Positions 1 through 15,833 of a stretch of DNA of 64,000 bases are shown in pieces. Below the pieces are notes generated by a model. That model did no database searches. It saw nothing but the letters and a program-made list of their open reading frames with translations, and had not been told where the DNA came from. Each line of letters begins with the position of its first letter. Position 1 is the stretch's first letter. Made by a program: the position numbers and the translations under genes. Location: the NCBI GenBank assembly GCA_944392815.1, contig CALXXY010000001.1:96001-160000 (forward strand). The letters are read 5' to 3'. Origin of the DNA: an uncultured Alphaproteobacteria bacterium. GTDB taxonomy: Bacteria > Pseudomonadota > Alphaproteobacteria > Rs-D84.

Positions 1-1769
1 AATATGCAATATGATTGCAAATTTCCGCGCCCAACACGACCGCGCAACTGGTGCAACGCCGCCAGTCCAAAACGTTCTGCGTTTTCAATAACGATGATTG
101 TCGCACGGGGGACGTCTATGCCAACCTCGATAACCGTGGTGGCGACGAGTATTTTCATGTCGGAATTATCGTCTGCGAATTTGGCCATGACGGCGTCACG
201 CTGTTTTTTATCCATTTGGCCGTGTACCAGACCCGCATGCGGAAATATTTTTTTCAATTCATCAAAACGCGCATTAACAGCGGTTAAATCCGATACTTCG
301 GATTCCATAACCAATGGACATACCCAAAACACTTTGGCCCCAGAATCAATTTGCAATTTCAATCGCGCAATTAATTCGCCAACGCGCGCAATCGGCAATT
401 TTGTCGTGATAATGGGTAATCGGCCGGCGGGCTTTTCATTTATAATCGACACGTCCATATCGCCGTATATTGTCATGGACAGCGTGCGCGGAATCGGCGT
501 TGCGGACAGTGCCAACAAATCTGGATTTGCGCCCTTGGCACGTAATGATTCGCGCTGGGAAACGCCAAAGCGATGTTGTTCGTCCACGATAACCAATCCC
601 AAATCTTTGTATTCCACATCGTCGGAAAACAGCGCATGCGTGCCGACAACTATTTTCGTACGCCCGGAACGCAATGATACCAATTTTTCACGGCGGGGGG
701 CGCCCTTGTCCCGGCCGGTCAGGATATCGCACACCAATCCCATTTTATCGCACATGGGTTTTATTTTTGCATAGTGTTGTTGCGCCAGTGTATCCGTTGG
801 TGCCAGCAATGCCGTTTGCGCACCTGATTCCGCCATTTTTACTGCGGCCGCCAATGCGACGATCGTTTTACCACTGCCCACGTCGCCCTGGACCAGGCGC
901 ATCATGGGCACATCGCGCGACATATCGTCAAATATTTCACGCAGCGTACGCATTTGCGCCCCGGTTAATTCAAACGGCAATGTGGCGTAAAATTTTCGCA
1001 TTAAATCATGTTTTTGTGGCCGCACAGTGCGACGATTGCGAACGTCCATGCGATTACGGCGGCTGATAACTATGGCCGATTGATGTGCCAACAATTCCCA
1101 ATACGCCAATTTTACAACGTACTGGGAATTCGGTAATAAATCATCGCCTGATTCTGGATAATGCACATGACGCAAAGCATCGAAAAATTCGCGCACGTTT
1201 GAATCAGGTTCCCCATTTATTTTTTCGGGCAATATGTTAAAAATCTGGTCGCGAACATTGGCAAATGTTTTTTGGGTTAACCCTTCGCCTGATGGATAGA
1301 TTGCCTGGATTGACGGGATTTTATCCGCATTTTGCATTTCTTCGATAAAATCAGGGTGATTAATTGTCGGGCGCGTGGTGCGTTCCAATTTTCCACTGAC
1401 CATGCGCCATTCGCCAATCGGTAATTTTTTCAGCCAATAATCTAAAAAATTCACATTGAAAAATTGAATGACGACACTGTTGCCCATTTTATCGTTGCAG
1501 ACAATCTGGGTCGGGCGACGATGACCACGAAACGCCCCGCCCGCCCGATGGGATTTGACCAATAACGGAATTGTTATAACATCGCCCGGTTGTGCCGCGT
1601 CCACGTTTTCAGTAATTTCGCGTGCACGAACGTATGCCGGCGTGTGCAACAAAAAATCCAACACACGCCGCCCCCCCAGGACGTCTGCAAATCGCGCGGC
1701 CAAAACAGGACCAACGCCCTTGATAAATTGCAAATCTGTGTTCAAAAATTCAAATAATTCACGTTTCAT
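1..1769 (-). CDS. recG: ATP-dependent DNA helicase RecG (3' end runs off the window)
   Basis: Not in the ORF track because it is truncated. Minus-strand translation from the ATG at 1769 (MKRELFEFLNTDLQFIKGVGP...) contains VVGTHALF, VIVDEQHRFGVSQR, LSATPIPRTL and ATTVIEVGIDVP motifs. Confidence 0.93.
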   Translation of the reverse strand, partial: MKRELFEFLNTDLQFIKGVGPVLAARFADVLGGRRVLDFLLHTPAYVRAREITENVDAAQPGDVITIPLLVKSHRAGGAFRGHRRPTQIVCNDKMGNSVVIQFFNVNFLDYWLKKLPIGEWRMVSGKLERTTRPTINHPDFIEEMQNADKIPSIQAIYPSGEGLTQKTFANVRDQIFNILPEKINGEPDSNVREFFDALRHVHYPESGDDLLPNSQYVVKLAYWELLAHQSAIVISRRNRMDVRNRRTVRPQKHDLMRKFYATLPFELTGAQMRTLREIFDDMSRDVPMMRLVQGDVGSGKTIVALAAAVKMAESGAQTALLAPTDTLAQQHYAKIKPMCDKMGLVCDILTGRDKGAPRREKLVSLRSGRTKIVVGTHALFSDDVEYKDLGLVIVDEQHRFGVSQRESLRAKGANPDLLALSATPIPRTLSMTIYGDMDVSIINEKPAGRLPIITTKLPIARVGELIARLKLQIDSGAKVFWVCPLVMESEVSDLTAVNARFDELKKIFPHAGLVHGQMDKKQRDAVMAKFADDNSDMKILVATTVIEVGIDVPRATIIVIENAERFGLAALHQLRGRVGRGNLQSYCI

Positions 1770-1836
1770 ATACTATAAAATTAGTCAAATTCGACACATT
1801 TTGCAATCGATTTCGTTGTTTGCACCAAATACCGTT

Positions 1837-2097
1837 TTATTGTATCACTGCGGTTTTTATCAGGGCGACGTCTTCGCGGATTGTGTCGATTTTTATTTGC
1901 AACTGCCCCAGGCCTGTTTCCAATATCGTTGTGCGATTTTCCAACGCTGTCAGGCGGTTGTCCGCGCGGTGCAGTTCATCTATTGATGAATCCTGGCGCG
2001 CGGCCCAATATATTACGCCCGCGATGAATACGATTAAAAACCAACTGTTGCGTAAAAAATCCAACAATCCCATTACACTGTTGGATTGTGATGTCAT
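1837..2097 (-). CDS. Small membrane protein with one TM helix and a coiled coil; possible holin or lysis accessory at the end of the phage-like operon
   Basis: Hydrophobic stretch WFLIVFIAGVIYWAA followed by a heptad-like region; start overlaps the stop of the upstream gene. Confidence 0.55.
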   Translation of the reverse strand: MTSQSNSVMGLLDFLRNSWFLIVFIAGVIYWAARQDSSIDELHRADNRLTALENRTTILETGLGQLQIKIDTIREDVALIKTAVIQ

Positions 2098-2291
2098 TAT
2101 TTCCCCCGTTGTATCATGTTTTCAATTTGATGTACCAGTGCACGTTGGGCTTCGATTCCGCGCAGTTCTGCGTCGGTGGCGTTCGGACCCAATGTACGTT
2201 CGATTGTAATTTTGCGCAAATGTTGTAATACCATCGCGCCGGCTGCAGTACTGAAAGTGCGCGCATAATTTTGTTCCAAATCTTTGTTCAT
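2097..2291 (-). CDS. Small podophage protein typically found downstream of the portal (Bbp19-like)
   Basis: YARTFSTAAGAMVLQHLR...LRGIEAQRALVHQI resembles the small protein encoded next to BPP-1/T7-like portals; translationally coupled to the portal gene. Confidence 0.65.
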   Translation of the reverse strand: MNKDLEQNYARTFSTAAGAMVLQHLRKITIERTLGPNATDAELRGIEAQRALVHQIENMIQRGK

Positions 2292-3526
2292 AATATATTC
2301 CCCTGGGTCAAAGTTTCTGCCATTGTCATTTTTGTAATCGGTGCGATGTATTTTAATTCTGCGTCGCTGTGCAGTGTGATTTTTTCAATCACGCCACGGC
2401 GCGATAAAATCTGCAGCCCGCGTTCCACCAATGGGTGAATAAACTCGTGCAACAGTCGCCCGTATGTCGCGCCCAGAATTCTGGCCATGTCTGCATTACG
2501 CGCCAGGATTTCTGTGGCGGTCATTTCTTTTTCAGACAGCAATCCCAATCTGTCGGCCAATAATGTGTGACGGATACGATCACGCAAATCAGTCAATATA
2601 ATTTGTGATACATCGAAATTCGCCCCGGACGATAATGGCGTCAGTCCTGATGAACCGACGGCTTTTGGTATGATGGCGCCTGGTGTCAGGTTTATATTAG
2701 ACAAATTTATCACGCCGTCATCGTCGGCCTGCCATATGCCAGACACGGCGATTGTTGCGTTTTTCAAAACCAGTTCCACAACTTTGTTGGCTGTTTTTAT
2801 ATCCGGCAATGCGCGCAGCACTGGGCCACGGCCGTATTGTTCACCACTGGCCACGGACCAGCGAAATATTATGTATGGATTTGTTTCGAATGTGCCGGTT
2901 GCGACAATGTTATTTTCCAATTCGCCGCCGACGTCCAACCATGCTGTAAAATCCGATCCGACCAAACTTTGCACCAGGCGCAACTGTGTTTCTGGGTCTG
3001 ATTTTATTGTATCGCGCAAATTTGATGGTGGCGTCCAATTAGGATATTTTTCCAATACCTGGCGTGCGGACATGGTGGCCGTATGAAATACTGCACCCGG
3101 CAAAATGGCCAGGTCGCGCATAGGAATCGCGGTAAACGAAAACGCAGACGCGGCACCAATCGGATTTTCCGCCATAAACAGGCATGCCGTGCCCAGCACT
3201 ATCAAATCCATATAGCATTGATGGATTGTGGTATAAAAATTAGAATCGTTCAGATTCGCACGCAATGCCGCACAGGCCGCAGTGGCGTCCGGGGAATCCG
3301 CACTTTCGGGCACCAATGATACCCACAGTGATTCTGGTGGCGTCAGCAACGAATAAATAGATGCCGCCAAATTATCGGCTGCGTCCGCGGCGGTGGCATC
3401 GAATACCAATGCTGCGTCGTCATCAGATGTTGGCATTGTATAACGTTGGGCCATGTCCCATCTGTTCAGCCATGGTGTACGCATATCCAATGCGCGACGA
3501 TACATTTGTTGTAAATTTTTTTGCAT
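2288..3526 (-). CDS. Podovirus-type head-to-tail connector (portal) protein
   Basis: Motifs FDATAADAADNLAASIYSLLTPP, FRWSVASGEQYGRGPVLRALPDIKTAN and MTATEILAR match T7 gp8-like portals. Start reassigned to MQKNLQQ (3526), preceded by AAAGGT. Confidence 0.88.
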   Translation of the reverse strand: MQKNLQQMYRRALDMRTPWLNRWDMAQRYTMPTSDDDAALVFDATAADAADNLAASIYSLLTPPESLWVSLVPESADSPDATAACAALRANLNDSNFYTTIHQCYMDLIVLGTACLFMAENPIGAASAFSFTAIPMRDLAILPGAVFHTATMSARQVLEKYPNWTPPSNLRDTIKSDPETQLRLVQSLVGSDFTAWLDVGGELENNIVATGTFETNPYIIFRWSVASGEQYGRGPVLRALPDIKTANKVVELVLKNATIAVSGIWQADDDGVINLSNINLTPGAIIPKAVGSSGLTPLSSGANFDVSQIILTDLRDRIRHTLLADRLGLLSEKEMTATEILARNADMARILGATYGRLLHEFIHPLVERGLQILSRRGVIEKITLHSDAELKYIAPITKMTMAETLTQGNIL

Positions 3527-3551
3527 GTTTATATACCTTTTGGTTGATGGT

Positions 3552-4400
3552 TTATATTTTGAAATTCGTGTTTGCATTAAAAATTTTTGGGGTGCGCCCA
3601 ATCGGGTGCACTGGCGTTGGAACGGCCGATACAGCGCCCGCGACTGCGTCCAGGCCATCGTCGTGACCAATTGTGCCGCTGGGCGTCCAACCCAGCATTT
3701 CTGCCAATAATGGTGTTGATTGAATACGCGTGTGCGCATGCAGGCGGCCGGACGTTAAAACAGGTTCAATTGCGTCCAGAATTCTGGTTTCTTTTTTCCA
3801 ATGGTTAACCACATTTTGAATCGTTATGGTTATGTTTTTTCGTGCCGACACGTCCCGCATTATTTCCGGCAACGCATTGCCAATGCCGTTTGTTTCTATG
3901 TTTATTCGGCGCATGCCATGGCGCTGCATAAATTCCAGCACCATTTCGCATTGGCGTGCCAGTGGGTGTAATTCGTCGTCTGGCACCAATAAATATACGA
4001 TGTCGTGCACGAATATATGTCGCGTTTTATCATCGCGATATATCAATGCGCATACACTGCCGTCGGAATTTTTACGCCCGGTGGACGGATCCCAATACAT
4101 TGTCGCGCCAGTGATTGTATATTCGCCAATGCGCGCGGTATGCACATTAAAGTCATCGTTGTACATACGCAATGCGTCTGGATCCAATTTCGCCCTGTCG
4201 GGGGCAATAAATTCCAACATCATTTGTGCAGAAAAATATCGCGCCCCGACCGCATTACGCAGTTCGTCTATGCGCGCAGGCGGAAATAATTCCGGCCAGG
4301 CGGGCGTGCCGTCTGGGGAAATTATCGGTATTTTTAATTCACGATATCCCCGCAAAAAAGGCGTTGAAAAACTAAAATTTTTATATACCATATCTGACAT
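3552..4400 (-). CDS. Terminase large subunit, C-terminal part (RNase H-like nuclease domain)
   Basis: PAWPELF, FSAQMMLE, YWDPSTG...SDGS, IETNGIG, KETRILDAIEP and HDDGLDAVAGA are TerL C-terminal motifs. The start at 4400 or 4391 is uncertain. Confidence 0.82.
   Translation of the reverse strand: MSDMVYKNFSFSTPFLRGYRELKIPIISPDGTPAWPELFPPARIDELRNAVGARYFSAQMMLEFIAPDRAKLDPDALRMYNDDFNVHTARIGEYTITGATMYWDPSTGRKNSDGSVCALIYRDDKTRHIFVHDIVYLLVPDDELHPLARQCEMVLEFMQRHGMRRINIETNGIGNALPEIMRDVSARKNITITIQNVVNHWKKETRILDAIEPVLTSGRLHAHTRIQSTPLLAEMLGWTPSGTIGHDDGLDAVAGAVSAVPTPVHPIGRTPKIFNANTNFKI
4364..4391 (+). promoter_or_regulatory. Sigma70-like promoter for a leaderless dnaB transcript
   Basis: TTGAAA-16 nt-TACCAT, then 7 nt to the ATG at 4399; no Shine-Dalgarno sequence. 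Confidence 0.55.
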
Positions 4401-5952
4401 GGACTTTACCCCGAAAACATTGCCGAATAATCTGGAGGCCGAACAGGCCGTTCTGGCCGCGGTGTTAATGAACAACCGCGCGTTGGAACGTGTGTCTGAA
4501 TTTCTGCGACCGGAACATTTTTCGCACCCTGCGCACCAGGAAATTTACAAATTGGCCGAACGGCAATTTGCCGCCGGAATACCGTTTGATATCATCACGG
4601 CCAAAAACTATCTGGATCAACAGGGCGTGTTGGAATCTGTGGGTGGCGTGGAATATCTGACGCAATTGGCGTCTGCGGGCGCAACCGTGGTGAACGTCGA
4701 ACAATACGGGCGCATAGTTTATGAAAACGCCATGCGACGCGAATTAATCAACCTGGGGCAATCCATTACCGATGCCGCTTTTGTCGAGGATTTGGATAAT
4801 CCTGTCACTGCACAAATCGAAACGGCCGAACAAAAATTATTTGAAATGGCGTCGACCGGCATTTCTGAACGCGAGGTTGCACCCATATCCACCGCATTAC
4901 AGGACGCATTGAAAGAGGCCGAAATCGCATACAAGGCCGATGGACAACTGTCTGGGTTGACAACTGGGTTGACCGCGTTGGATAAATCCATCAGTGGTCT
5001 GCACCATTCCGATTTGATTATTATTGCCGGTCGTCCCGCAATGGGAAAAACCACGCTGGCGATGAATATCGCGTTTAATGCCGCGAATGCTATTTTATAC
5101 GGTCGCGCCAACGAACGGTACAAAGGCGCCGTGGTGTTTTTCAGTTTGGAAATGTCAAAATCCCAATTGGCGGCGCGTGTGTTATCGTCGCAATCGAAAA
5201 TTCCTGCGTCTGCCATGCGCGAAGGGTCACTGACCGACGAAGATTTCCTGAAAATGTCACAGTATGCCGATGCTATTAGCAAAGTGCCTTTGTACATTGA
5301 TGATACGCCTGGAATGTCTGTGCCGATGTTGCGGACACGCGCGCGTCGTTTGGCACGCAAATGTGGCGGCATTGCGTTAATCGTAATTGACTATTTGCAA
5401 TTGATGACGTCACCCGGTGGCAAAAACAAGGATAATCGTGTCCAGGAATTATCCGAAATCACGCGCGGTCTGAAAATGCTGGCCAAGGAACTGGATGTGC
5501 CTGTTATTGCCCTGTCCCAGTTGTCGCGCAGTGTTGAATCGCGCGATGACAAACGGCCCCAGTTGTCTGATTTGCGTGAATCTGGGTCCATCGAACAGGA
5601 CGCCGACATTGTTATGTTTACATATCGCGAAGAATACTATCTGGAAAATCGCGACCCGTCACAGCGCATTTCCGGCAATGCCAACGAAAAAATTATCGAA
5701 AGTTTCCAAAAACGTTTGGAACGCGCACGTGGCAAAGCCGATGTGATTATCGGGAAAAATCGTCATGGACGGCCTGAAACTGTGCACATGGCATTTTTCG
5801 GCGATTACAGTTTGTTTGACAATCTGGAAGAAACCAATGCCCGCGGCGAAAATGATTTCAATAATCCGACCGAGGGTATGCCTGATGTCGATATGTCTGA
5901 ACAGCCAACGCCGATTGATGCGGACGCCATTCCAGACGATATGCCGCTGTAA
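4399..5952 (+). CDS. dnaB: Replicative DNA helicase DnaB
   Basis: LPNNLEAEQAVLAAVL N-terminus, IIAGRPAMGKT Walker A, IVIDYLQLM, ALSQLSR and LRESGSIEQDAD. The real start is MDFTPK (4399); the ORF-track extension is antisense to terL. Confidence 0.96.
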   Translation: MDFTPKTLPNNLEAEQAVLAAVLMNNRALERVSEFLRPEHFSHPAHQEIYKLAERQFAAGIPFDIITAKNYLDQQGVLESVGGVEYLTQLASAGATVVNVEQYGRIVYENAMRRELINLGQSITDAAFVEDLDNPVTAQIETAEQKLFEMASTGISEREVAPISTALQDALKEAEIAYKADGQLSGLTTGLTALDKSISGLHHSDLIIIAGRPAMGKTTLAMNIAFNAANAILYGRANERYKGAVVFFSLEMSKSQLAARVLSSQSKIPASAMREGSLTDEDFLKMSQYADAISKVPLYIDDTPGMSVPMLRTRARRLARKCGGIALIVIDYLQLMTSPGGKNKDNRVQELSEITRGLKMLAKELDVPVIALSQLSRSVESRDDKRPQLSDLRESGSIEQDADIVMFTYREEYYLENRDPSQRISGNANEKIIESFQKRLERARGKADVIIGKNRHGRPETVHMAFFGDYSLFDNLEETNARGENDFNNPTEGMPDVDMSEQPTPIDADAIPDDMPL

Positions 5953-6022
5953 ACATTTTATGCTTGCCAAACGCATCTAAATTGACTAAAATTTTTGTCA
6001 AGAAATTCCAAGGAGATTTGCG

Positions 6023-7030
6023 ATGGCCCAAGAAGAAATAATTTTCCCAAATAATATCAGAAATATTCGTTTGGCCAATGGCATGAAAATGACTGAATTG
6101 GCACGCCAGGCAAATTTATCGCTGTCGGCGGTATCCAAAATCGAAAAAGGTGTACGCCGTTTAAATCAAAAACAATTATTGAATATTTGTAATATTTTGG
6201 GTTGCAAATTATCCGATATTTTTATCAAGGAATCTGATGACGTTGCCGGCCAATGGCAAAGCGAAATCAAACGCCGTCTGAATGATAACGAAGACAGTGG
6301 TCTGAAAATTTTTGGCAGCGGGCTGCGCAAAATTCGCCAACAGTCGGGCAAAACTATTGCCCAGGCCGCGGCCGATGCCGGTATGACATTGTCTGTGTAT
6401 CATAAAATCGAGGTCGGCCAGCGCGAAATTTACGAAAACGAAATTGAACCTTTGGCCAAATCGTTTGGATATACTGCTGAATCCATGTTGGATAAAATCG
6501 CGACTTTGTATAAATCTGGCGAATTGAACAAGCAGATTAACAAGGTCAAAGAACGCGTTAAATCCGTATTGGTGCCGGGTAATCCATTGTCTGGAATCGA
6601 TGTGCACAGCAGTTTGTATGGTGCAAAATTATACGACAGCGCACGCAAAAAATTGGTGCCTGTGTTCGGTGCGCCATCGGGCAAAGCAATCGCGTTCAAA
6701 AAATCTGACAAAACAATGATTGTTGCCCCCATGCCGCTGGAGGGTCATTCTGGCATATATGCGATTATCCCGAATTCCAAACGGTTGGGCGGTTTTATCC
6801 CAGAACATGCCTATGTTTTTGCAGACGCCGACACGCCGGCCGCGATTGGTGATTTGGCTGTTTGCATTGATACAGATTTTAATTCGTTGGATTCAAATGA
6901 CACCGCTGTGGCACAAATCGCTGTTGTTCGCACAGATTCGCGGGGCAAAATTTACGGCCAGATTTCTGCGCCCGAAGAAAAAATCGTCGCCCCCACCATG
7001 CACAAGGTTGTCATGATTGTCATGGAATAA
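6023..7030 (+). CDS. Transcriptional regulator with two XRE-type HTH domains and a C-terminal S24-like region
   Basis: Two HTH units (IRNIRLANGMKMTELARQANLSLSAVSKIEKG; LRKIRQQSGKTIAQAAADAGMTLSVYHKIEVG); SD AAGGAG. Confidence 0.8.
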   Translation: MAQEEIIFPNNIRNIRLANGMKMTELARQANLSLSAVSKIEKGVRRLNQKQLLNICNILGCKLSDIFIKESDDVAGQWQSEIKRRLNDNEDSGLKIFGSGLRKIRQQSGKTIAQAAADAGMTLSVYHKIEVGQREIYENEIEPLAKSFGYTAESMLDKIATLYKSGELNKQINKVKERVKSVLVPGNPLSGIDVHSSLYGAKLYDSARKKLVPVFGAPSGKAIAFKKSDKTMIVAPMPLEGHSGIYAIIPNSKRLGGFIPEHAYVFADADTPAAIGDLAVCIDTDFNSLDSNDTAVAQIAVVRTDSRGKIYGQISAPEEKIVAPTMHKVVMIVME

Positions 7031-7057
7031 TTCCATAACCCCAGGGAGAGAGCACAC

Positions 7058-7732
7058 ATGAAAGCCAAAGCCAGCACAGTTGCACAGAAATTGTTAAATC
7101 TGTATCGCCAGGAACATGTTATTTTCGGCGGCTGGGCCGCGGTTAATCGCGTTTTTGTGGACGAAGCCACCGATGACGTAATACATGAATTGCGCAATTT
7201 GCCAACCGGGAAAAATCTGGTGCGGCATATTGAAAATTTACGCAGTGGCAAAACCCCCATGGATTCAATCGAACGCGAATTGTTGCCGTACGATGGATTG
7301 ATGGACGAAACTGTGGCAACGGTGCCTTTGACGGCCGCAGAATGGGCGGAATTGGAATCCGGTATTGATGCGTTCACAACCGACCAAAATGGACTGGACG
7401 AAATTCAACAATTAAATGTTGTAAAAAAATTCGGCGACCAATGGTTGGTGGCTATACGTGCTGCATTAAATGCCCGGCCTGATTTGTTGGAAAAATGGTC
7501 GGTTATCAACAAAACATATCGCGCGTATTATTTGTGGAAAGTGGCCAGTGATATGTTAACCCAGCCGCTGTCTGAACGTGCGCGCGCGCAATTACAGGCC
7601 GACATGCCCGAATACGAAACGTATTTGCCAATGTTTGGTGATGCCGGCAATGAATTGTTGGAAAAACTGCGTTCGTTTATTTCCACAACAATCCCCGATG
7701 AAACGAACGACGATGGCGTTGAATCCATTTAA
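7058..7732 (+). CDS. Hypothetical protein
   Basis: 224-aa ORF with a GGGAG SD, co-oriented with dnaB and the regulator; its stop overlaps the stop of the terminase ATPase gene. Confidence 0.75.
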   Translation: MKAKASTVAQKLLNLYRQEHVIFGGWAAVNRVFVDEATDDVIHELRNLPTGKNLVRHIENLRSGKTPMDSIERELLPYDGLMDETVATVPLTAAEWAELESGIDAFTTDQNGLDEIQQLNVVKKFGDQWLVAIRAALNARPDLLEKWSVINKTYRAYYLWKVASDMLTQPLSERARAQLQADMPEYETYLPMFGDAGNELLEKLRSFISTTIPDETNDDGVESI

Positions 7733-8331
7733 TCGTCTGTTGTTCTGTAAATAGTATCCAATGTGTGCGGTGTGCCGATATAAATCATTGTACCGGTCGG
7801 CGACAAAATAAAATCCAATTCGCGCAGACGTTCACGCAATGTTTCCCGTTTTTGCGATGTGTTGCTGGTGTTGGGAACCTCGACATCGTCACATATAATC
7901 AAATCCGATCGCAGACCAGTAATGTTGCCGTGAATGCCCTGGCATATGACAGACGGTTCACGAATGCCAACCGGGCGATTTACGGTTATACGGCCACTGG
8001 CCCATTCTTTTTTTACGTCCGGGATTAAATCGGCACACATTGGGTGATTTTCCAATATGTGCCGAATATGCGACACCATACGTGACGCCAGGCCGTTTTC
8101 CGCAGACAGGATTAAAATCCTGGTGCTGGGGCGCATATGCAACACACATGCTGCAAAAATGCCAACAACTGTGGATTTGCCAGAATGCCTGAACGCCATC
8201 AGCAATCCACGATGCGGTGCGTCATTTAACACCGACACCAAAAATTCCATGATTTTTTTGTGGTGCGCCGGTGTGGTTAATCCCAAAACTTGGTTCCATG
8301 CGTCCAGGAAATTATAAAATTCGGCCAGCAT
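7729..8331 (-). CDS. Terminase large subunit, N-terminal ATPase domain
   Basis: Walker A-like MAFRHSGKST, GNITGLRSDLIICDDVE (Walker B) and coupling motif IYIGTPH, as in T7 gp19-like terminases; ends about 10 residues after GTPH. Confidence 0.87.
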   Translation of the reverse strand: MLAEFYNFLDAWNQVLGLTTPAHHKKIMEFLVSVLNDAPHRGLLMAFRHSGKSTVVGIFAACVLHMRPSTRILILSAENGLASRMVSHIRHILENHPMCADLIPDVKKEWASGRITVNRPVGIREPSVICQGIHGNITGLRSDLIICDDVEVPNTSNTSQKRETLRERLRELDFILSPTGTMIYIGTPHTLDTIYRTTDD

Positions 8332-8336
8332 ATAAT

Positions 8337-8684
8337 TTAACCCAACAAATCGTCAAATTTATCCAATACCATTTGCAACAAATTTGGACGTGTGGCCCGA
8401 ATTTGTTTTAATTTTTCTGTGTTTGATTTACGTTTTTCGTCGTACGGTTTGGCGGTTTCTGATTTCAATCGCGCCAATACTGCACTGGTACTCATACTGC
8501 GGCCAGACGCCCCTGACGCACCGTATTTGGCACGTTGGGTTGCCAGTGTTTTTTTGACCAGATTCGTTTTTTCACGTGCGTCGGACGCCATGTCCGCCAA
8601 TATTTTTTGACGTTCATTTTCGGCCTGTTTTTTGGAATCGTTATATCCCAATACGGTCGTGACATCTGATACCAATTGTCCCAT
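8337..8684 (-). CDS. Putative virion or internal protein of the phage-like cluster
   Basis: Located between the tail nozzle gene and terL; helical, with an ATQRAKYGASG motif reminiscent of small podophage virion proteins; AAGGA SD. Confidence 0.55.
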   Translation of the reverse strand: MGQLVSDVTTVLGYNDSKKQAENERQKILADMASDAREKTNLVKKTLATQRAKYGASGASGRSMSTSAVLARLKSETAKPYDEKRKSNTEKLKQIRATRPNLLQMVLDKFDDLLG

Positions 8685-8705
8685 TTTTATTTCCTTTGGT
8701 TAAAT

Positions 8706-10421
8706 TTATATTGTGTAATTTCCGTATACGCCAACAGACAAAATCGTTGTTGGCAACTGTTCGTTGCTGGATATTGTCCACGGCGCAGTTATGCAATTTT
8801 GCTGGGTTCCCAGTATATTGACTGATACGTCACCACTGTATCCAGGGGCGGCGGCGTCATATATATTATCTGGGAACGGGGCACGCATGCCGTTTATGAA
8901 CAAAGTTTTTGTATCCAGCGTACGCGCCACTATTTTTCTGATACGCAATTTACGCGCGTTATGGCCAGATGCCCGCACAGGCAACGCTGATGCTGTATAT
9001 GAAAAATCATATTGCGACGCATCAGATAATGCTGTATCGGAAAAAGTTTCCAAATAACACGTGTCGCCACGCGCAACAACCACGTATGTTTTGCCCGCTA
9101 TGGTGGCCACTGATTTAAATGTGCCGTCGGTTTTATATCGCGCCCATGCAGAAATGCCCAGCGCGGAATTTTGATTCAGTACCGCCATATTGCCGTCTGT
9201 CATTACAACAAACAATTGACGCGTGTTTTCGTTATACGATATGTCCGTGGGCGTGTTCATTAAATGTTTTGCCTGGGTACATAAATCACGCGCATTGTAA
9301 TTTTCACCCAATGCGTCCAGCGTTAATTCGCGAATGTCCTGTTCGGTGGCGGAAATAAATACTGTGGCACCTTCGATTTTTTGCGGCGGCAAATAACGCG
9401 TGGCAACGCTGCCGACTGATGTGTGTTGTTTGATTTCAATTGACGATGGGGTCAAAGGTTTGCTGGATATCGCCCATTCGCCTGAATTAGTCAAAATTTG
9501 CAAATTGTCACTGCTGACCAATGTGCAGATTTGTTGGCGCTGTTGCGATAATAATGTGACGAAAATAGATTCGTCGTCCAGGCCCGTGCCAACATTAAAA
9601 TTATTATACTGGCCCACCCGCGACGCCCATATACCACTGGGCCACGATGGGGTTCCGCCGAAAATCAATCTGTCTTGGTGATATGTGACACTGCACGGCC
9701 AACCGCGACGGTCGCTGAATGCGGATTCGTACCAATCTGTGACGGGGTCGGACGGCAAATTATATTGCGAATTTGTATACGCGTATACTACAGTCGGACT
9801 GACGTATTCCGTGATTCGCCACTGATTATTTAACAACAACAGGTACCCACCAACAGAATTTTGTGTCCAAAACGCTTTGTTGGTGGTAAATGTTGCCGTG
9901 TTATTGCCCGCGCTGTTTGCGGTCACGGTAATATTAATGGTCGCTGCGTCATCGAATTTCATGAATGGCATGTTTAATGTCATATCTGAATCATTGCGTT
10001 TGAATTCGAACGGAACCAATTCGAAATTCACAGATCCCATTTGTAAAATACAGGGCTGATATTTTGGGTGAACGAATATCATCGTGCCATTTCGCTGGGC
10101 ATATTGAATTTTCGGATAATCATCAAAATCCCATTCGAATAATAAATCACATATAACCGTTGCACCGTCGTATATCAACATATGCCCATCAGTCAATGCC
10201 AATATATAATTTTCTGTTTCACTGACTGAAAATGGTATCAGGCGCGCAGACGATGTTAATGTGTCAACTGTGGCCAAACCGCGGCGCCGGCGCAGTCCAC
10301 CACCAGCGATAACGTCCATATTTTCCAAATACGACAATCCGTTTAAATTATCGCGTGCGTAAAATTCCGGGGAAACTTCGCCGTCTGCGAACGAGTTTTG
10401 GGTTTTAATAAAATCTGTCAT
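8706..10421 (-). CDS. Podovirus tail tubular protein B / nozzle (T7 gp12- or P22 gp10-like)
   Basis: N-terminal QNSFADGEVSPEFYAR...LENMDVIAGGGLRRRRG and GWPCSVTYHQDRLIFGG...WASRVG motifs; position after the adaptor gene. Confidence 0.8.
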   Translation of the reverse strand: MTDFIKTQNSFADGEVSPEFYARDNLNGLSYLENMDVIAGGGLRRRRGLATVDTLTSSARLIPFSVSETENYILALTDGHMLIYDGATVICDLLFEWDFDDYPKIQYAQRNGTMIFVHPKYQPCILQMGSVNFELVPFEFKRNDSDMTLNMPFMKFDDAATINITVTANSAGNNTATFTTNKAFWTQNSVGGYLLLLNNQWRITEYVSPTVVYAYTNSQYNLPSDPVTDWYESAFSDRRGWPCSVTYHQDRLIFGGTPSWPSGIWASRVGQYNNFNVGTGLDDESIFVTLLSQQRQQICTLVSSDNLQILTNSGEWAISSKPLTPSSIEIKQHTSVGSVATRYLPPQKIEGATVFISATEQDIRELTLDALGENYNARDLCTQAKHLMNTPTDISYNENTRQLFVVMTDGNMAVLNQNSALGISAWARYKTDGTFKSVATIAGKTYVVVARGDTCYLETFSDTALSDASQYDFSYTASALPVRASGHNARKLRIRKIVARTLDTKTLFINGMRAPFPDNIYDAAAPGYSGDVSVNILGTQQNCITAPWTISSNEQLPTTILSVGVYGNYTI

Positions 10422-10436
10422 GTTGTACCCCCGATA

Positions 10437-10958
10437 TTAAAATCGAACGTTTATCAGTGAAAAATTTTCTATATTTTCATGGGCGGCCGACGATGCGCTG
10501 TCTATGAATTTCGCAGATTGTAATTCTGTTTCATACAAAGCCGCCAGCATGCGAAACACGTTTTGGTCGCCTGTTAAAGGAATGCAAAATTCCATTGCCA
10601 ATTTTGTTGCCGCCAAAGACGTAAAATATCCCGGAAATTTATCCGGCGCGACGCGGACTGTGGCGTTTATAGTAATATTTTCCGATGGCGATATTATTTC
10701 GTTGCCGATAATTTCACCACTGCATTTTAATATGCGCAAACATTCCGCCGGAATTATAAAATTTCCATCGCTGTTTTTGTTCAGTTTGAATTTTCGTGTG
10801 GCAAATCGCCATGGGTGCATGGCCAGCAATGTATCCACCACAGAATCATACAAAGTGCGCGACAATTGCGCAGCCGGTGTATCGTCTGTTAATGACTGGA
10901 TCGGCCGTTCCCCCAATTTCAGCAATGCCAAAGAACACAAATCTATTTTCGTTTGCAT
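10437..10958 (-). CDS. Podovirus tail tubular protein A / head-tail adaptor (T7 gp11-like)
   Basis: IDLCSLALLKLGERPIQSL...LLAMHPWRFA motif typical of adaptor proteins. Confidence 0.8.
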   Translation of the reverse strand: MQTKIDLCSLALLKLGERPIQSLTDDTPAAQLSRTLYDSVVDTLLAMHPWRFATRKFKLNKNSDGNFIIPAECLRILKCSGEIIGNEIISPSENITINATVRVAPDKFPGYFTSLAATKLAMEFCIPLTGDQNVFRMLAALYETELQSAKFIDSASSAAHENIENFSLINVRF

Positions 10959-10981
10959 AAATTCCCCCATAGGTCACAAAT

Positions 10982-11009
10982 AAAAATCCGGGGCAACAAC
11001 CTGCCCCGG
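10982..11009 (-). terminator. Intrinsic terminator between the capsid genes and tail genes
   Basis: On the minus strand, CCGGGGCA-ggttgt-TGCCCCGG followed by ATTTTT. Confidence 0.7.
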
Positions 11010-11019
11010 TATAAAAAAG

Positions 11020-11247
11020 TTATGACAATGCGCCAACCGTGATACTGTCACCAACTGTGACTGTTTTAATAGACGTTGCGTCCGACGCGTTTATGATAAC
11101 CATATCGCCCGTATTCATCAATGTTTTCACATCATCAAAATATCCAGACGCGCCGATTGTCGCCATCGTTTCGGCTGCGGCATAATGCCACAATGTAAAT
11201 CCGTTTGCATACGCAATTACGGACAGATTTTTATTTTGAAACGCCAT
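11020..11247 (-). CDS. Small capsid-associated protein (decoration-like, inferred)
   Basis: LSVIAYANGFTLWHY motif; directly follows the capsid gene; AAAGGA SD. Confidence 0.6.
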   Translation of the reverse strand: MAFQNKNLSVIAYANGFTLWHYAAAETMATIGASGYFDDVKTLMNTGDMVIINASDATSIKTVTVGDSITVGALS

Positions 11248-11279
11248 TGATTTTTTCCTTTGTATTTATTGGTTGTTAA

Positions 11280-12098
11280 TTAATCTTTGCATTTGATACG
11301 AACGATACCAGTGTCGTCAATCATGACTGCGCCCTGGGACATGCTGTTGCTGATGAAATGAGCCGCCCGTTCGCCGTGCCATGAAATATCTGTTTTTACT
11401 TCCTGGCCACAGGCATGACCGATGCTGGTTGCGTGATACATGAAACAGTCACGCTTGGACGTGTCCGACAACGGTAAATCGTTGTACAGAACCCATGTTA
11501 TGCCCAACCACTGTTTGGACGCCCCGCCAGATATCAATGGCAGATTGTCGCCCACGTAATCGCCGGATACAAATTCATCTATCCCCAGCAATTCATTCCA
11601 TTGGTGCACGCCAATGACTGCAAATCTGCGGCCATCATCGGGAACATCGTTTTCATTTAACACTTCCAATGCGGACAAAATTAAATCTTTGGTCAGACCG
11701 GTTGAATAATCGCCCACAGATGTTGTGGCGGACGACATTGCGCCAACAATCAATTCGTCTGTTTTGCGCCCCAGTGCATACGCACCAGCAGACGCAACAA
11801 CACGACGTTCGTCAATGTTGGTTTTTAATTCGTCCAATGCGTCAACCCAATCACCCGCATAATAGTCCTGCAAAATACATTCCACAGGTTCGTGATTCAA
11901 ATTCATCACAGGCACAATACCGTGACGCGATTTTGTGCTGGCGGTGCCACGACCAACCTTTTGGAAAGTGGTGGACGCACCGACAACCCCAGATTTGCTG
12001 CGTACCGTGGCACGCAGTTTTGTGCCCATTTGCTGATATGCCAAATGGACGTCGGCTTCGAACTGTTTGACAAAGACCTGATCAACTGAAACAGACAT
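11280..12098 (-). CDS. Major capsid protein, podophage type
   Basis: FVKQFEADVHLAYQQMGTKLR, AGAYALGRKTDELI and DVPDDGRRF match the BPP-1/T7-like capsid family; strong SD AAAGGAAA. Confidence 0.85.
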   Translation of the reverse strand: MSVSVDQVFVKQFEADVHLAYQQMGTKLRATVRSKSGVVGASTTFQKVGRGTASTKSRHGIVPVMNLNHEPVECILQDYYAGDWVDALDELKTNIDERRVVASAGAYALGRKTDELIVGAMSSATTSVGDYSTGLTKDLILSALEVLNENDVPDDGRRFAVIGVHQWNELLGIDEFVSGDYVGDNLPLISGGASKQWLGITWVLYNDLPLSDTSKRDCFMYHATSIGHACGQEVKTDISWHGERAAHFISNSMSQGAVMIDDTGIVRIKCKD

Positions 12099-12298
12099 TA
12101 TTAATTTCCTTTTGCTGTAAAAAATAAAAAAAGACGTAATAAAAAATTACGTCGGTAAATTTTATGATTATGGTTGTGCACATAAACATATGCGCCATAT
12201 ACATAAAACAAATTGGGTCCGTTATCGGATTGTCCAAAAAAATATTCAATCAGACGAAATAAAATCTGATTGAATATTTTATGCGGGGGCAATTAAAA

Positions 12299-12319
12299 AT
12301 CCCCGGAATTCCGGGGATT
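12299..12319 (-). terminator. Terminator after the histone-like gene
   Basis: Palindrome ATCCCCGGAATTCCGGGGAT followed by a T-run on the minus strand. Confidence 0.6.
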
Positions 12320-12322
12320 ATA

Positions 12323-12676
12323 TTATTTTTTCTTTGCACATGCTTTTTTTACCGGTTTTTTCGCAACAACTTTTTTTGCGACCGGTTTTTTCGCTGCTAC
12401 TTTTTTAACAGCAACTTTTTTTGCAGGTGCTTTTTTAGCAACAACTTTTTTTGCAACTGGTTTTTTCACCGCTGCTTTTTTAGCAACTGGTTTTTTCGCT
12501 GCAACTGGTTTTTTAACTGCTACTTTTTTAGCAACAGGTTTTTTTGCAACAACTTTTTTTGCTGCTGGTTTTTTGGCAAGTGCTTTTTTAGCAACTGGTT
12601 TCTTTGCAACCGGTTTGGCAGCCGGCTTTTTCGCGGCGGCTTTCTTTGCGGCTGGTTTCAAGAATGTGAATGCCAT
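12323..12676 (-). CDS. Histone H1-like (Hc2/AlgP-type) Lys/Ala/Pro/Val-rich DNA-binding protein
   Basis: 117 aa made almost entirely of xxAKK pentapeptide repeats; SD AAGGAG before MAFTFLK. Confidence 0.8.
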
Positions 12677-12780
12677 TCTTCTCTCCTTTTTATTTTTTGG
12701 ATAGAACAAATTTCTTTTGTTCTTACTTTTATTTTATATGAAAGAAAAAAAATAGTAAAGAAGAAAGTGCATTTTTTTCA

Positions 12781-13437
12781 TCACGAATATAATTTTTTAA
12801 ATCCATTTTCAATTTTGCGAACGTATTCTGGATCCATATCGCGCCAATATTTTGGATCGCGCATCATGCGACGCAGTTCATCATCTGTTAAATTTTTTTG
12901 TGGCGCATCATTGGTTTCAATCGATGGTTCCATCGTTTGCATCATCGCGTAAATGCTGCGGATTCCCTGGGGTGTAGCGCACAGAGTTTCAAACGCATCA
13001 CGTGGTAAATATTTTTCGCCGAACGAATTTATTGCATTTAATGCGTCACACATTTTTTGTTCATCGCCGAAAAAATTTTTTAATTCACTGATTGCATTTG
13101 TTTCATTTTGCACATCAAATAATTCTGATAACACAGGTGTTAAAAATTCTTCTGCGATACGATAAATTTGTTCAACCTGGGACGAAGTTAATCCAATTTC
13201 AAAAAATTTTTCGCGCAACGATTCGTCATCAAACAATTCATTTGTCGGATATTCAGACGAATCATTTGGCACACCAATTGCACGATTAAATTTGGCACGT
13301 GTGTCTGCATCGCTGTCTGCGTTTGGCACAGAAACCATCGTTCCGATTTTCTTTTCCAATTCAGAATATGATTTTAATAATGCGGCTGTGTTTAATGTAC
13401 CGTCTTTATTCAGAAATTTTTCTGGAATGTTTTCCAT
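12781..13437 (-). CDS. Capsid assembly (scaffolding) protein, T7 gp9-like
   Basis: IPEKF...LLKSYSELEKKIG N-terminus and MMRDPKYWRD..PEYVRKI C-terminus are typical of podophage scaffold proteins; acidic and helical. Confidence 0.78.
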   Translation of the reverse strand: MENIPEKFLNKDGTLNTAALLKSYSELEKKIGTMVSVPNADSDADTRAKFNRAIGVPNDSSEYPTNELFDDESLREKFFEIGLTSSQVEQIYRIAEEFLTPVLSELFDVQNETNAISELKNFFGDEQKMCDALNAINSFGEKYLPRDAFETLCATPQGIRSIYAMMQTMEPSIETNDAPQKNLTDDELRRMMRDPKYWRDMDPEYVRKIENGFKKLYS

Positions 13438-13627
13438 TTGTGTTCCTTTTGTTTTCGCTGGATTTACGCAGAAAATAAATTCCGCCCAATGTAAATATTG
13501 ATTGCAGCATTGTGAATATATCTGTATCACCAACCAAATACGCGCCCAGTGCTGATAATATTCCAATGCTTGATATTATGTATGTTCTGTGTCCGGATAA
13601 AAATCCGCCACTGATAATTTTTTTCAT
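13406..13627 (-). CDS. Holin-like small membrane protein
   Basis: GHRTYII followed by two short hydrophobic helices and a basic tail; lies next to the hydrolase gene. Confidence 0.55.
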   Translation of the reverse strand: MKKIISGGFLSGHRTYIISSIGILSALGAYLVGDTDIFTMLQSIFTLGGIYFLRKSSENKRNTNGKHSRKISE

Positions 13628-13644
13628 AACCTGTCCATTTTGTA

Positions 13645-14055
13645 TTACAGATAAAACAACAATCCATCTATGTCGGCGATATACCCACGCGCAGTCGCCC
13701 AATCTGGTATCAATCCATCATGGTGAAAACGCGTCGCGCCATTGCAACAATCCGGCAACAGGCCATGCAACATTCTGCGTGCCACGCGCACACACATTTG
13801 AAATCCGGAATCTGTCGACGTCACAGACAATAATTCATTATCCGGTGATGCAGGATTTAACACTGGGAATAAATCTGCGTCCAATGCGACGTCCACAACA
13901 CATCTGTGCGTGGCCACCGCGGAATTATAAATCATGGACGTTAACGCTTCGACCACACGCAATGATACAGCGTGTGTTTCTGCATATACTGTACGCGCAA
14001 TTTTATACGCCACAGATTGCAATTCATCTGTGTTTTTAATTAATGTCAATTGCAT
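13645..14055 (-). CDS. Cell-wall hydrolase (SleB/Hydrolase_2-like), divergent
   Basis: IARTVYAE (catalytic Glu position) and GATRFH...PDWA...GLLFY motifs. Confidence 0.7.
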   Translation of the reverse strand: MQLTLIKNTDELQSVAYKIARTVYAETHAVSLRVVEALTSMIYNSAVATHRCVVDVALDADLFPVLNPASPDNELLSVTSTDSGFQMCVRVARRMLHGLLPDCCNGATRFHHDGLIPDWATARGYIADIDGLLFYL

Positions 14056-14208
14056 GTGCTGAATGCCCCTGTGATTGTTGAAATAAAAAATGGGCCGCAA
14101 CAAAGTGCGACCCAAAATAAAAATCCGCCGGTTTCCCGCGGACATACTTTTACCTGTTCATGCGTTCTATAGTATCATATTTGAACACAAAAGTCAAGAA
14201 AATAATTT

Positions 14209-14889
14209 TTACATGCTGATTTCGTCACCATAGGCCAGCATATAACGCGACCCATTTCGCAGCACCAGCGCACCATTTTCATTTATTCCAATCAGTTCAA
14301 CATTATCACCGCGATATTTTACGATTTTATTTAATCCTGTGGCCAAATCCATCCAGCGCGCGCGCACCAATGGAAAATCTGCACGCCGCCATTTGTCCAA
14401 ATTTTTCATAAGTTTATTTAACAATTCCGTTTTATCCACAGACGCATAATTATCCAATTTTGTCGTTTTATACTGTGGTACGGTCGGATTTGTTTTTATA
14501 TTAATTCCAATACCCACAATGACAAAACGTGCGGCGTATTCGATTAAAATCCCACACACCTTGGCCCCGTCTATTAATATATCGTTTGGCCATTTAATTT
14601 TGGGGTGAATGCCGAACGCAATCAATGTTTCCGCCACCGCCACCGCAACAACATATGACAGACGCGGATCACGTTCGTCGCATTCAAAAATAAAACTGAC
14701 GTACAAATTACCATGATGCGACACCCATGTGCGTTGATACCGACCGCGGCCCGCGGATTGCGCCTGGGCCATGATGACGGTATGATCGCGGGCCTGGCCC
14801 ATGGCGACCAGTTCCAGTGCATATGTTTGCGTGCTGGGGATTTTATCAAACGAAATTAATTTATATCCGGCCAAGTTTATATACCCCAT
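14209..14889 (-). CDS. birA: Biotin-[acetyl-CoA-carboxylase] ligase
   Basis: STQ, QSAGRGRYQRTW, IKWPNDILIDGAKVCGILIE and GIGIN motifs. Confidence 0.93.
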   Translation of the reverse strand: MGYINLAGYKLISFDKIPSTQTYALELVAMGQARDHTVIMAQAQSAGRGRYQRTWVSHHGNLYVSFIFECDERDPRLSYVVAVAVAETLIAFGIHPKIKWPNDILIDGAKVCGILIEYAARFVIVGIGINIKTNPTVPQYKTTKLDNYASVDKTELLNKLMKNLDKWRRADFPLVRARWMDLATGLNKIVKYRGDNVELIGINENGALVLRNGSRYMLAYGDEISM

Positions 14890-15283
14890 CTGAATTTATT
14901 ATGAAATCACGCCCGAACGTTTTGCGCAATTGATATATAGACGTATCCACTGTATGCGTTGTGGCGTTCGGGGAATATCCCAACGCGGTCCGCAAATCAG
15001 ACGCCGACATTCCGCCCGTTTTATGCAACAGCAACACTATTTGCGCCTGGGTATACGGCAAATGAACGCTGCGGCCAAAAATCTGGTGCAGTTGTTGAAT
15101 GTTGCCATCAATTGCGTTTTGTATGGCGGTTTTAATCGCGATTGGCGTGGCCGGCATATTTATGTCCAGCCCATCAAAATCCACGCATGTGGCGTCCATG
15201 ACGTCGGACACAGTCGCACCGAATTCAGATAAAATCTGGCGCCAAACTGGGTCTGATGAAAAAATTTTTATTCCGTTTAACAT
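14861..15283 (-). CDS. Protein with a C-terminal OmpR-type winged-helix domain
   Basis: LGYSPNATTHTVDTSIYQLRK...GVYKL matches the Trans_reg_C pattern; no intact receiver domain. Confidence 0.7.
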   Translation of the reverse strand: MLNGIKIFSSDPVWRQILSEFGATVSDVMDATCVDFDGLDINMPATPIAIKTAIQNAIDGNIQQLHQIFGRSVHLPYTQAQIVLLLHKTGGMSASDLRTALGYSPNATTHTVDTSIYQLRKTFGRDFIINSDGVYKLGRI

Positions 15284-15376
15284 CTGCTATCCCCAGAATA
15301 ATAAATGCCTGCCCCATTGTCCAACAAAAAAGACCGCGTTATATTCCGCGGTCAGATGTATCCAAAACGCATGGCG

Positions 15377-15625: not shown

Positions 15626-15798
15626 TTTCTCTCTCCTGTGGTTAAATTTGGGGCATATGCTCGCTGTGGGACATATGTCTGGTATTGATTTTATTCCAGT
15701 TCACACCCACAGACAACAAGGACCATTTCCTATTTCCGCAGAAATCCGGGGTTTCTGTTCCTAAAAATAACACTAAAAAATAAATTTGACAAAAATAC

Positions 15799-15827: not shown

Positions 15828-15833
15828 TCGATT

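Follow-up and report, generated by a model that had tools for sequence, protein, structure and literature searches.

A podovirus-type gene cluster inherited with the chromosome in the gut genus Enterousia: a candidate gene transfer agent with a two-gene large terminase

To whom do the phage-like genes lying between recG and birA in a small gut bacterium belong: to a virus, active or decaying, or to the host itself? The question is raised by a stretch of 64,000 nucleotides (nt), hereafter the window, taken from contig 1 (CALXXY010000001.1, positions 96,001 to 160,000) of the assembly GCA_944392815.1, a 927-kb genome, 96.8% complete, of an uncultured alphaproteobacterium. Its close relatives are titled 'Candidatus Enterousia' or uncultured gut Alphaproteobacteria, and the accessible text of PMC12306168 places the genus Enterousia in the order Rs-D84, with reduced genomes in all members. 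Positions 1837-14198 of the window hold, on the minus strand, a module of particle genes corresponding to a T7/BPP-1 podovirus structural set. The order of transcription is hydrolase, holin-like protein, scaffold, HC2-like protein, capsid, a 75-amino-acid (aa) protein, gp11-like adaptor, gp12-like nozzle, a 115-aa protein and the N-terminal piece of the large terminase (TerL), followed, after three plus-strand genes, by the C-terminal piece of TerL, the portal, a Bbp19-like protein and an 86-aa membrane protein. A preliminary description of the window had listed the minus-strand genes from the hydrolase to the Bbp19-like gene, all of which are present between recG and birA, and had taken them for a vertically inherited, host-maintained system rather than a decaying prophage. 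We consider it most likely, with a probability of about 0.6, that they form a host-owned, domesticated module of T7/BPP-1 podovirus type making a DNA-filled, short-tailed particle released by lysis of the producer, and acting in the manner of a gene transfer agent (GTA).

The inheritance of the module carries much of this reading. The capsid gene was found in all 24 genomes of the genus and in 13 of the order's 16 other genomes, at 65-70% identity; those three in which it was not found are 63, 80 and 92% complete. The species-genome collection contains 462 related stretches, the 80 best of which were taken as the synteny set. Gene order is the same across these 80 Enterousia-type loci, including the separation of the N and C pieces of TerL by a block made of the 224-aa, helix-turn-helix (HTH) and dnaB genes. 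Exceptions comprise a fibre-stub gene (48 of 75 loci), two loci with deletions, and loci ending at a contig or locus edge, to which three apparent truncations were traced. One of the two loci with deletions additionally displays a broken scaffold and a broken portal gene.

Median pairwise ratios of nonsynonymous to synonymous substitution (dN/dS), calculated by the Nei-Gojobori method (NG86) from single-hit, stop-free sequences (26-80 per gene), gave rough values of 0.07-0.32 for the particle genes, among them 0.11 for the N piece of TerL, 0.19 for the C piece and 0.16 for the Bbp19-like gene, as against 0.16 for birA and 0.078 for the HTH gene. In 59 loci, the particle proteins, concatenated, diverged in step with the concatenated proteins of host genes nearby (Mantel r = 0.848, with none of 2000 permutations as high), and their trees have 35 of 56 splits in common, compared with a mean of 0.18 after label shuffling. 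Purifying selection acts on the module, which is passed on with the chromosome throughout the genus and the order Rs-D84, and its domestication is well supported. Vertical inheritance, as claimed in the preliminary description, was thus borne out by presence, synteny and co-divergence, and the synteny and dN/dS comparison that it called for returned a constant gene order and ratios that are not near 1. Its further remarks also stood: the GC content of the cluster (0.451) does not depart from that of the genome (0.456), and family searches of the cluster genes revealed no integrase, polymerase or primase. Apart from the host-type dnaB block and the HC2-like gene, all roles recognised in the cluster belong to structure, packaging and lysis.

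The large terminase of the cluster is encoded by two genes. The N piece (7729-8331, minus strand, 200 aa) carries the Walker A, Walker B and coupling motifs and aligns with positions 271-460 of the profile phrog_38 (2.1e-40); it also matches the T7 gp19 chains 4bij and 8dgc at residues 21-215. The C piece (3552-4400, minus strand, open reading frame (ORF) extending to 4475, ca. 282 aa) comprises the end of the ATPase domain and the nuclease, and aligns with positions 466-707 of the same profile (2.8e-38). Since the N piece ends at profile position 460 and the C piece resumes at 466, no segment of the terminase is missing. In five other families of the order, the frame of the N piece stops 1-5 codons past a common motif in 12 of 12 loci. 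The two genes are adjacent, with a spacer of 165-334 nt and no dnaB, in five loci from three of these five families, while in a fourth family a tRNA gene, ftsZ (PF00091, 5e-45) and the portal gene stand between them. The ftsZ and tRNA genes between the terminase genes were observed in a second family of the order at L098:11639-13321 and at further loci from the same genus. Both families have an essential host gene embedded in the particle cluster, dnaB in Enterousia and ftsZ in the second. Outside the order, matches to the N and C pieces lie side by side, with no intervening gene, in 18 of 20 loci, the remaining two having no terminase in the fetched stretch; the one locus checked has a single terminase ORF of 495 aa, and several IMG/VR contigs likewise have both matches side by side.

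It follows from these comparisons that the terminase was split once, in the ancestor of the order, and that the split has been conserved across six families. The end point being the same in 12 of 12 loci of the five other families, the split predates the insertion of dnaB, and the dnaB operon or ftsZ entered later into an existing spacer between separate terminase genes. An intron or ribozyme in the spacer was considered and rejected, as Rfam returned only tRNAs in six loci; positions 1-16000 of the window had no meaningful Rfam match (E 0.37-0.43, far below the gathering threshold).

Residue alignment of 48 terminase sequences, 30 split and 18 intact, showed that the catalytic equipment is complete. 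The N piece is invariant in all 48 at Walker A (G51, K52, S53), at Walker B with the catalytic glutamate (D148, D149, E151) and at the coupling motif (G186, T187, P188), as is the C piece at the acidic residues of the nuclease (D104, E169, D247, D248, D251). A modelled complex of the two pieces scored 0.87, whereas the best of three controls scored 0.00; of the solved complexes, 58 of 80 attain the mark set, as do 2 of 110 mismatched pairs. Runs agreed in at least 95% of contacts, with a predicted local distance difference test score (pLDDT) of the partner of at least 79, and the first strands of the C piece docked on residues 41-48 and 184-199 of the N piece. Because intact terminases of this family have already been solved, the pass of the model may reflect memory of those structures. 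It shows that the two pieces retain the appearance of a single enzyme, their binding to each other being a prediction. A literature search on split large terminases found, in the texts accessible to it, no stably inherited two-gene TerL.

The host-type units that interrupt the module, already pointed out in the preliminary description, are the dnaB block and an HC2/H1-like gene. The former occupies positions 3826-7732 on the plus strand and consists of dnaB (4399-5952; PF03796, 6.7e-101), a regulator with two XRE-type HTH domains (6023-7030; PF01381, 5.9e-20, in two stretches) and the gene of a 224-aa, all-helical protein, the last of the block (7058-7732; no family, atlas or fold match). This dnaB is the sole DnaB_C match, and the sole replicative helicase gene, found in the genome. 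The longer, 708-aa frame of dnaB was rejected as evidence of a real N-terminal domain: its first ca. 190 codons are the antisense of the TerL C piece and are broken by stops in 73 of 73 relatives, so that the real start is the ATG at 4399. The start codons of dnaB and of the TerL C piece overlap in one CATG. Homologues of the 224-aa protein occur in three genomes with no capsid match, and it is therefore probably a host gene. Its candidacy as antiterminator or small terminase (TerS) was not upheld: it has no family or atlas match, its AlphaFold model (pLDDT 77.8) gave 0 of 73 PDB fold matches at E <= 0.001, and the homologues in genomes with no capsid match also weigh against such roles. The HC2-like gene (12323-12676, minus strand; PF07382, 1.6e-17), which has its own terminator and encodes a Lys/Ala-rich, histone H1-like protein, sits between scaffold and capsid in 71 of 71 Enterousia loci and in 6 of 6 loci of the second family.

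How such an operon might be held in check is suggested by its leader (14081-14198, minus strand), which consists of a sigma-70 promoter, a -10-like motif and two tandem hairpin/T-tract terminators. The hydrolase gene starts at 14055 and not at 14145, and the stretch between these two positions holds terminator hairpins. The same series of elements precedes the hydrolase start in all 71 loci with a birA-hydrolase spacer, namely a near-invariant -35 and extended -10 box, an A-rich motif at about +1 to +9, and two T-tract hairpins; in an alignment of 57 leaders, 11 of 12 predicted stem pairs displayed compensatory changes. A covariance model (R1) built solely from cluster leaders gave 96.6 bits on the copy of the window and recovered the leader of an unlinked fibre gene on contig 7 (61.3 bits, E 9e-9). 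A weak match, made of a promoter and a two-hairpin stretch, lies 5' of a GH108 lysin gene (24.9 bits, E 0.09). The model also marks the head of the lysis/scaffold operon in families f3, f4 and f5, with a weaker and shorter match for f2 (L104); outside the order, weaker matches were found directly upstream of the portal (L207) and ca. 300 nt upstream of the terminase (L205). Leader copies were detected in 23 of the 24 genomes of the genus, with 2-12 copies in each. Among 20 secondary copies examined, five precede fibre genes; the others lie 5' of a fibre-like gene, lysozyme-like genes, genes resembling EcoRI-type and C5 DNA methyltransferases, and unassigned ORFs, the five fibres and one GH108 relative being labelled by BLAST and the rest from their N-terminal motifs. 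The methyltransferase-like genes, named from such motifs, were seen behind the leader copies of L225, L230, L231, L242 and L236. If co-induced, these methyltransferases might modify DNA before packaging.

Terminator-like hairpins are not confined to the leader. The intergenic stretch 5' of the capsid gene (12099-12322) contains two, at 12298-12319 and 12133-12153, and the interval between scaffold and capsid has at least one in 71 of 71 loci and at least two in 62 of 71. An intrinsic terminator (10988-11009, minus strand) marks the boundary between the capsid unit and the tail genes, and 72 of 80 loci have a terminator-like hairpin between the 75-aa gene and the adaptor. No such hairpin was found at the tight gene junctions (0 of 76, 0 of 77, 0 of 80 and 0 of 63). 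A promoter followed by intrinsic terminators ahead of late genes is the layout of a Q-type cassette, and the sharing of a promoter and double-terminator leader by the operon and a distant fibre gene suggests Q-type antitermination. CtrA-type TTAA-N7-TTAA sites were absent from positions 1-16000 of the window, with 29 in the whole genome.

Some observations concern possible regulators. Five small HTH paralogues are scattered over the window, at 15377-15625 (minus), 25286-25564 (minus), 34764-34934 (plus), 35360-35530 (minus) and 44515-44733 (plus), and share 38-48% identity with the N-terminal region of a CI/LexA-type repressor beside L204, a cluster of the wider family described below. One of them lies just upstream of birA and of a 140-aa gene (14861-15283, minus strand) that overlaps the start of birA and whose C-terminal portion resembles a winged helix of the OmpR type (atlas lead 0.89). 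This 140-aa gene is kept upstream of birA in the genus, in all 71 of the 80 loci that reach that side, and none was found near the cluster in other families. The metatranscriptome X20 was set aside as evidence of expression: its RNA-library contigs of 265-428 nt cover particle and host genes alike at a depth of 2-4, as carried-over DNA would, and the other runs provisionally labelled RNA are probably DNA.

The preliminary description had also predicted accessory genes elsewhere in the genome, and fibre, lysin and spanin genes were found. Its statement that a tail fibre is lacking holds for the cluster and fails for the genome, in which contig 7 carries a fibre gene of T7 type, encoding 336 aa (PF03906 at 30.4 bits, the cut-off being 25.2). 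Contig 3 encodes a lysin with GH108 and PG_binding_3 domains, and an overlapping pair of inner and outer spanin-like genes lies directly behind rho on contig 4 (phrog_1275, 4.9e-7). The promoter of rho (contig 4, 68203-68300; spanin pair at 69621-69972) resembles the particle leader in its -35 box and A-rich motif (R1 22.6 bits, E 0.26) and has none of the leader hairpins. We can only speculate that, with the pair placed behind the rho terminator, read-through from rho expresses the spanins. In 48 of 75 relatives, the terminase is separated from the 115-aa gene by a 182-aa gene, which corresponds to the N-terminal domain of a fibre of T7 type (phrog_1640, 9.2e-17). Of the genome-wide search for TerS, ejection and fibre genes proposed in the preliminary description, only the fibre was recovered, and its remark that no small terminase is recognisable remains true of the cluster; the profile used for TerS, phrog_31793, represents a 96-aa gene located just upstream of TerL in a locus of the wider family.

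Most remaining products of the cluster have a recognisable relative. The T7-type portal (2288-3739, real start probably near 3577; PF12236, 1.1e-78; dN/dS 0.08), the scaffold or capsid assembly protein (12781-13437, likely start Met at 13437, ORF to 13566; PF05396, 5.1e-11; dN/dS 0.24), the tail tube made of a gp11-like adaptor (tail tubular protein A, 10437-10970; phrog_394, 8.8e-33; PF17212 weak; dN/dS 0.19) and a gp12-like nozzle (tail tubular protein B, 8706-10421; phrog_376, 8.6e-86; dN/dS 0.14), and the gp19-like terminase together give the T7-type structural set, all on the minus strand as are the products that follow. The major capsid protein (11280-12098; PF19821, 6.6e-71; phrog_3437) shows the lowest dN/dS, 0.07, and is followed by the conserved 75-aa protein (11020-11247; phrog_18004, 5.6e-14; dN/dS 0.12), which could be a head accessory protein. 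The 115-aa coiled-coil protein (8337-8684; dN/dS 0.20) has no family match of its own, and its homologues in other families match phrog_418 (3.3e-5) and, weakly, PF24072; it is possibly a gp14-like internal virion protein. At the end of the cluster are the small Bbp19-like protein (2097-2291; PF25181, 2.6e-10), whose gene adjoins that of the portal in the wider family as well, and the 86-aa protein with one hydrophobic helix (1837-2097; phrog_736, weak at 7e-4; dN/dS 0.16), next to recG (3-1769). At the other end, before birA (14209-14889), lies the lysis pair. The membrane protein of ca. 73 aa with two hydrophobic stretches (about 13406-13627; dN/dS 0.12) is kept in relatives and has no family match, and is called holin-like from its size, position and hydrophobic stretches. 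The 136-aa hydrolase (13645-14055; dN/dS 0.32) is a diverged SleB-type (Hydrolase_2) cell-wall hydrolase; it has no Pfam match itself and a weak endolysin match (phrog_938, 1.7e-4), and 9 of 10 homologues at other loci match PF07486 Hydrolase_2, six of them above the cut-off. Elsewhere in the window, an AT-rich stretch (27000-32000, GC 0.34-0.36 against 0.456 for the genome) adjoins a tRNA-Asn gene (26692-26767), and corresponds to the tRNA-Asn island named in the preliminary description.

Put together, these parts would fit the following course of events. A strong constitutive promoter would fire into the two tandem terminators, leaving the operon silent, until a putative processive antiterminator, comparable to lambda Q, BrrG of BaGTA or GafYZ of CcGTA, allowed read-through of the leader and internal terminators. 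The same read-through would occur at the leader copies of the distant fibre gene and, on weaker support, of the lysin gene. Scaffold, capsid and portal would then form proheads; the two-polypeptide terminase, with a Walker A/B core in N and the ATPase end and nuclease in C, would assemble and pack DNA by headful; the gp11/gp12 stub and the fibres would close the particle; and holin, hydrolases and spanins would release it. Within this scheme, GTA function is plausible from the genes at hand.

Several points weigh against it. The particle, the DNA packed in it and its transfer are so far predictions made from the genes. Parts of the machinery were not found: no TerS was recognised in the cluster, and phrog_31793, used as profile and in tblastn, had no match in the genome, other TerS families not having been searched; no gp15/gp16-type ejection protein or large core gene was found, and the scheme offers no route for DNA across the envelope of a recipient; and no antiterminator was found, the genome having one NusG, no match to PF06530 (Q21) and a chance-level match of 12.7 bits to PF03589 (lambda Q). 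Of the T7 core and ejection set there is just the weak gp14-like 115-aa gene, and the fibre stands on another contig, the stub present within the cluster in 48 of 75 relatives being absent here. The leader is not specific to particle genes, as its copies also precede methyltransferases and other genes. Some loci are damaged: in L043 and L073 a deletion runs from the adaptor gene into the TerL N piece, with loss of the nozzle gene, and L105, from another family, has an in-frame stop in the N piece. Finally, the dN/dS values are rough because dS is near saturation (medians 0.84-1.36, most 1.2-1.3), and the host genes used for co-divergence are linked to the cluster, which ties the particle genes to the locus and not to unlinked markers.

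Among the alternatives, the one that survives best retains the domesticated particle and gives it a role other than transfer, such as providing capsids for other elements, lysing a subpopulation to release DNA or cell contents, or making particles for killing or adhesion. We regard it as rather unlikely, though it draws on real features of this genome. A candidate borrower of capsids is a tRNA-Ser serine-recombinase island that has a small-terminase-like gene and an intact TerL and no capsid genes. This second TerL, assigned to the same phrog_38 (491-aa frame, E 5.4e-89), lies about 75 kb away in an AT-rich island, preceded by a 124-aa small-terminase-like gene and a ParB-like gene, with a 529-aa serine recombinase nearby, while in the cluster itself small terminase and ejection proteins were not found; the conserved full lysis set would suit lysis as an end in itself. 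The second TerL maps to positions 178599-180426 of contig 1, ca. 18.6 kb past the end of the window, and the island around it also carries restriction-modification genes and could be a capsid-borrowing element. However, an AT-rich island (GC 0.31-0.41) cannot explain the selection acting on a cluster that is conserved throughout the order. The retention under purifying selection of all catalytic residues in both terminase halves argues that the cluster packs DNA itself, and the retention, behind the same leader, of fibre genes whose C-terminal parts vary fits delivery to cells.

The module could also be one member of a widespread, still horizontally active family of small phage-like elements, either mobile or dependent on a helper, the Enterousia copy having become fixed. 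An even draw of 400 Alphaproteobacteria, to which this genome was added, revealed capsid relatives (E <= 1e-20) in 79 of 401 genomes; besides this genome, 64 of the 79, of 0.9-6.6 Mb in size, have identities of 49-90%, with one match each in all but two. Twenty fetched loci of this wider family, with GC contents of 0.38-0.69, display the same module, seven of them without portal and scaffold beside the capsid. One has a holin, a lysozyme and a divergent CI/LexA-type repressor, and in five cross-genus pairs the cluster itself is all that is common, the flanks not being syntenic. In addition, IMG/VR files 178 related stretches as viral. These features would suit mobility, which we nevertheless judge improbable for the copy studied here: members of Enterousia and of the order have position, split terminase and embedded dnaB in common, particle and host genes diverge together, the cluster and its immediate surroundings contain neither an integrase nor a replication gene, and its composition is that of the host. 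A 5084-bp record from a human faecal sample, MT838907.1 ('Bacteriophage sp.'), encodes a capsid 63.5% identical to that of the cluster and probably represents a piece of some related cluster, chromosomal in origin, that was deposited as a phage.

The closest cultured phage, Pelagibacter phage EXVC031P Hodr, has capsid, portal and nozzle proteins 43, 33 and 38% identical to those of the cluster and a similar local order of portal, Bbp19, scaffold, capsid, small gene, gp11 and gp12. In contrast to the cluster, which has ca. 9 kb of particle genes and neither core/ejection nor replication genes, Hodr is 34 kb long, with large internal proteins and early genes. The split terminase of the cluster is of a different lineage, with no tblastn match to Hodr at E 0.01.

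That the cluster represents the functionless remains of a cryptic prophage in decay, as its terminase in two pieces, its missing core/ejection, replication and integration genes and the large deletions in 2 of 80 loci might suggest, is highly improbable and already contradicted by the conservation data: each gene is intact in nearly all 80 loci with dN/dS of 0.07-0.32, the split site is shared by six families with invariant catalytic residues, and genomes below 1 Mb, as described in the accessible part of PMC12306168, leave little room for unused DNA.

Genomes below 1 Mb that have shed most of their metabolism and yet devote more than 1% of their DNA to particle genes imply a strong benefit. 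Should host DNA prove to travel in these particles, gut Alphaproteobacteria of people and farm animals would possess a new GTA of podovirus origin. The two-gene terminase offers a natural experiment on the division of a packaging motor, and the promoter with its double-terminator leader a means of tracing the switch and the regulon as a whole. As IMG/VR files such loci as viral contigs, they are possibly miscounted as proviruses. We advance more tentatively, as a possibility to be doubted until better supported, a broader view in which a second, ancient, podovirus-derived lineage of alphaproteobacterial GTAs exists apart from RcGTA, with a two-subunit terminase in Rs-D84, a Q-like regulon driving fibre, lysin and DNA-methyltransferase genes, and capsids possibly borrowed by serine-recombinase islands. 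Literature searches found no paper describing a phage-like cluster in Enterousia or Rs-D84, and the words 'phage', 'capsid' and 'gene transfer' are absent from the accessible text of PMC12306168.

How does this cluster compare with known systems? On every genomic criterion that could be tested it appears to work like a GTA, having particle genes without replication or integration genes, inherited vertically under purifying selection. RcGTA-type agents (Rhodogtaviriformidae) have a siphovirus-like gene content. The cluster resembles RcGTA and CcGTA in its phage-derived head, tail, packaging and lysis genes devoid of replication and integration functions, in its order-wide inheritance with the host and in its accessory genes at other loci. 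It differs in being made of a PF19821 capsid, a PF12236 portal, a gp11/gp12 short-tail stub and a T7 gp19-like terminase and, since the families of capsid, portal, tail and terminase differ, it is not a member of the RcGTA family. TerS, GafA/GafYZ and a CtrA link, known for RcGTA or CcGTA, were not found for the cluster. Known GTAs have a small terminase without a specific DNA-binding domain, according to the accessible text of PMC11841831, and operon terminators requiring anti-termination have been reported for CcGTA in the part of PMC11150451 available.

The leader has further parallels. In BaGTA of Bartonella (bgtA-K), the accessible part of a preprint (bioRxiv 10.1101/2024.11.20.624540) describes a sigma-70 promoter, a downstream -10-like element, a leader terminator and the capsid operon, under the antiterminator BrrG. 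The Enterousia leader has the same order of elements, the two having been compared by leader layout. It differs by two tandem leader terminators and additional internal ones, and the Enterousia system has no BrrG/Q21-like gene by Pfam and no run-off replication module. The likeness extends to the lambdoid Q-dependent cassette (PR', pause element, tR'), in which a constitutive promoter and, immediately behind it, terminators precede the lysis and morphogenesis genes, with further terminators inside; here the conserved motif after the -10 box is a putative pause site, and a Q protein was not found in this genome by Pfam.

Another counterpart is FpGTA of Faecalibacterium prausnitzii (Borodovich et al. 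2026). The accessible text of PMC12946183 reports nanopore reads of packaged host DNA and describes two loci, a compact operon of ca. 10 kb encoding terminase, portal, scaffold and capsid and a further one in which genes for fibre and lysis lie. As its authors term it podovirus-like, and the first GTA-like element of that kind in the text available, podovirus morphotype alone is no longer new; the main text, so far as accessible, makes no mention of Enterousia. Compared by description, the two systems have in common a gut host, a compact operon and a fibre encoded elsewhere. FpGTA differs in its candidate TerS, its unsplit TerL and the phylum of its host, and it is set apart from the Enterousia system, as are RcGTA and CcGTA, by the latter being documented through gene content. 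If the Enterousia particles do carry host DNA between cells, they would represent a GTA independent of RcGTA, BaGTA and FpGTA.

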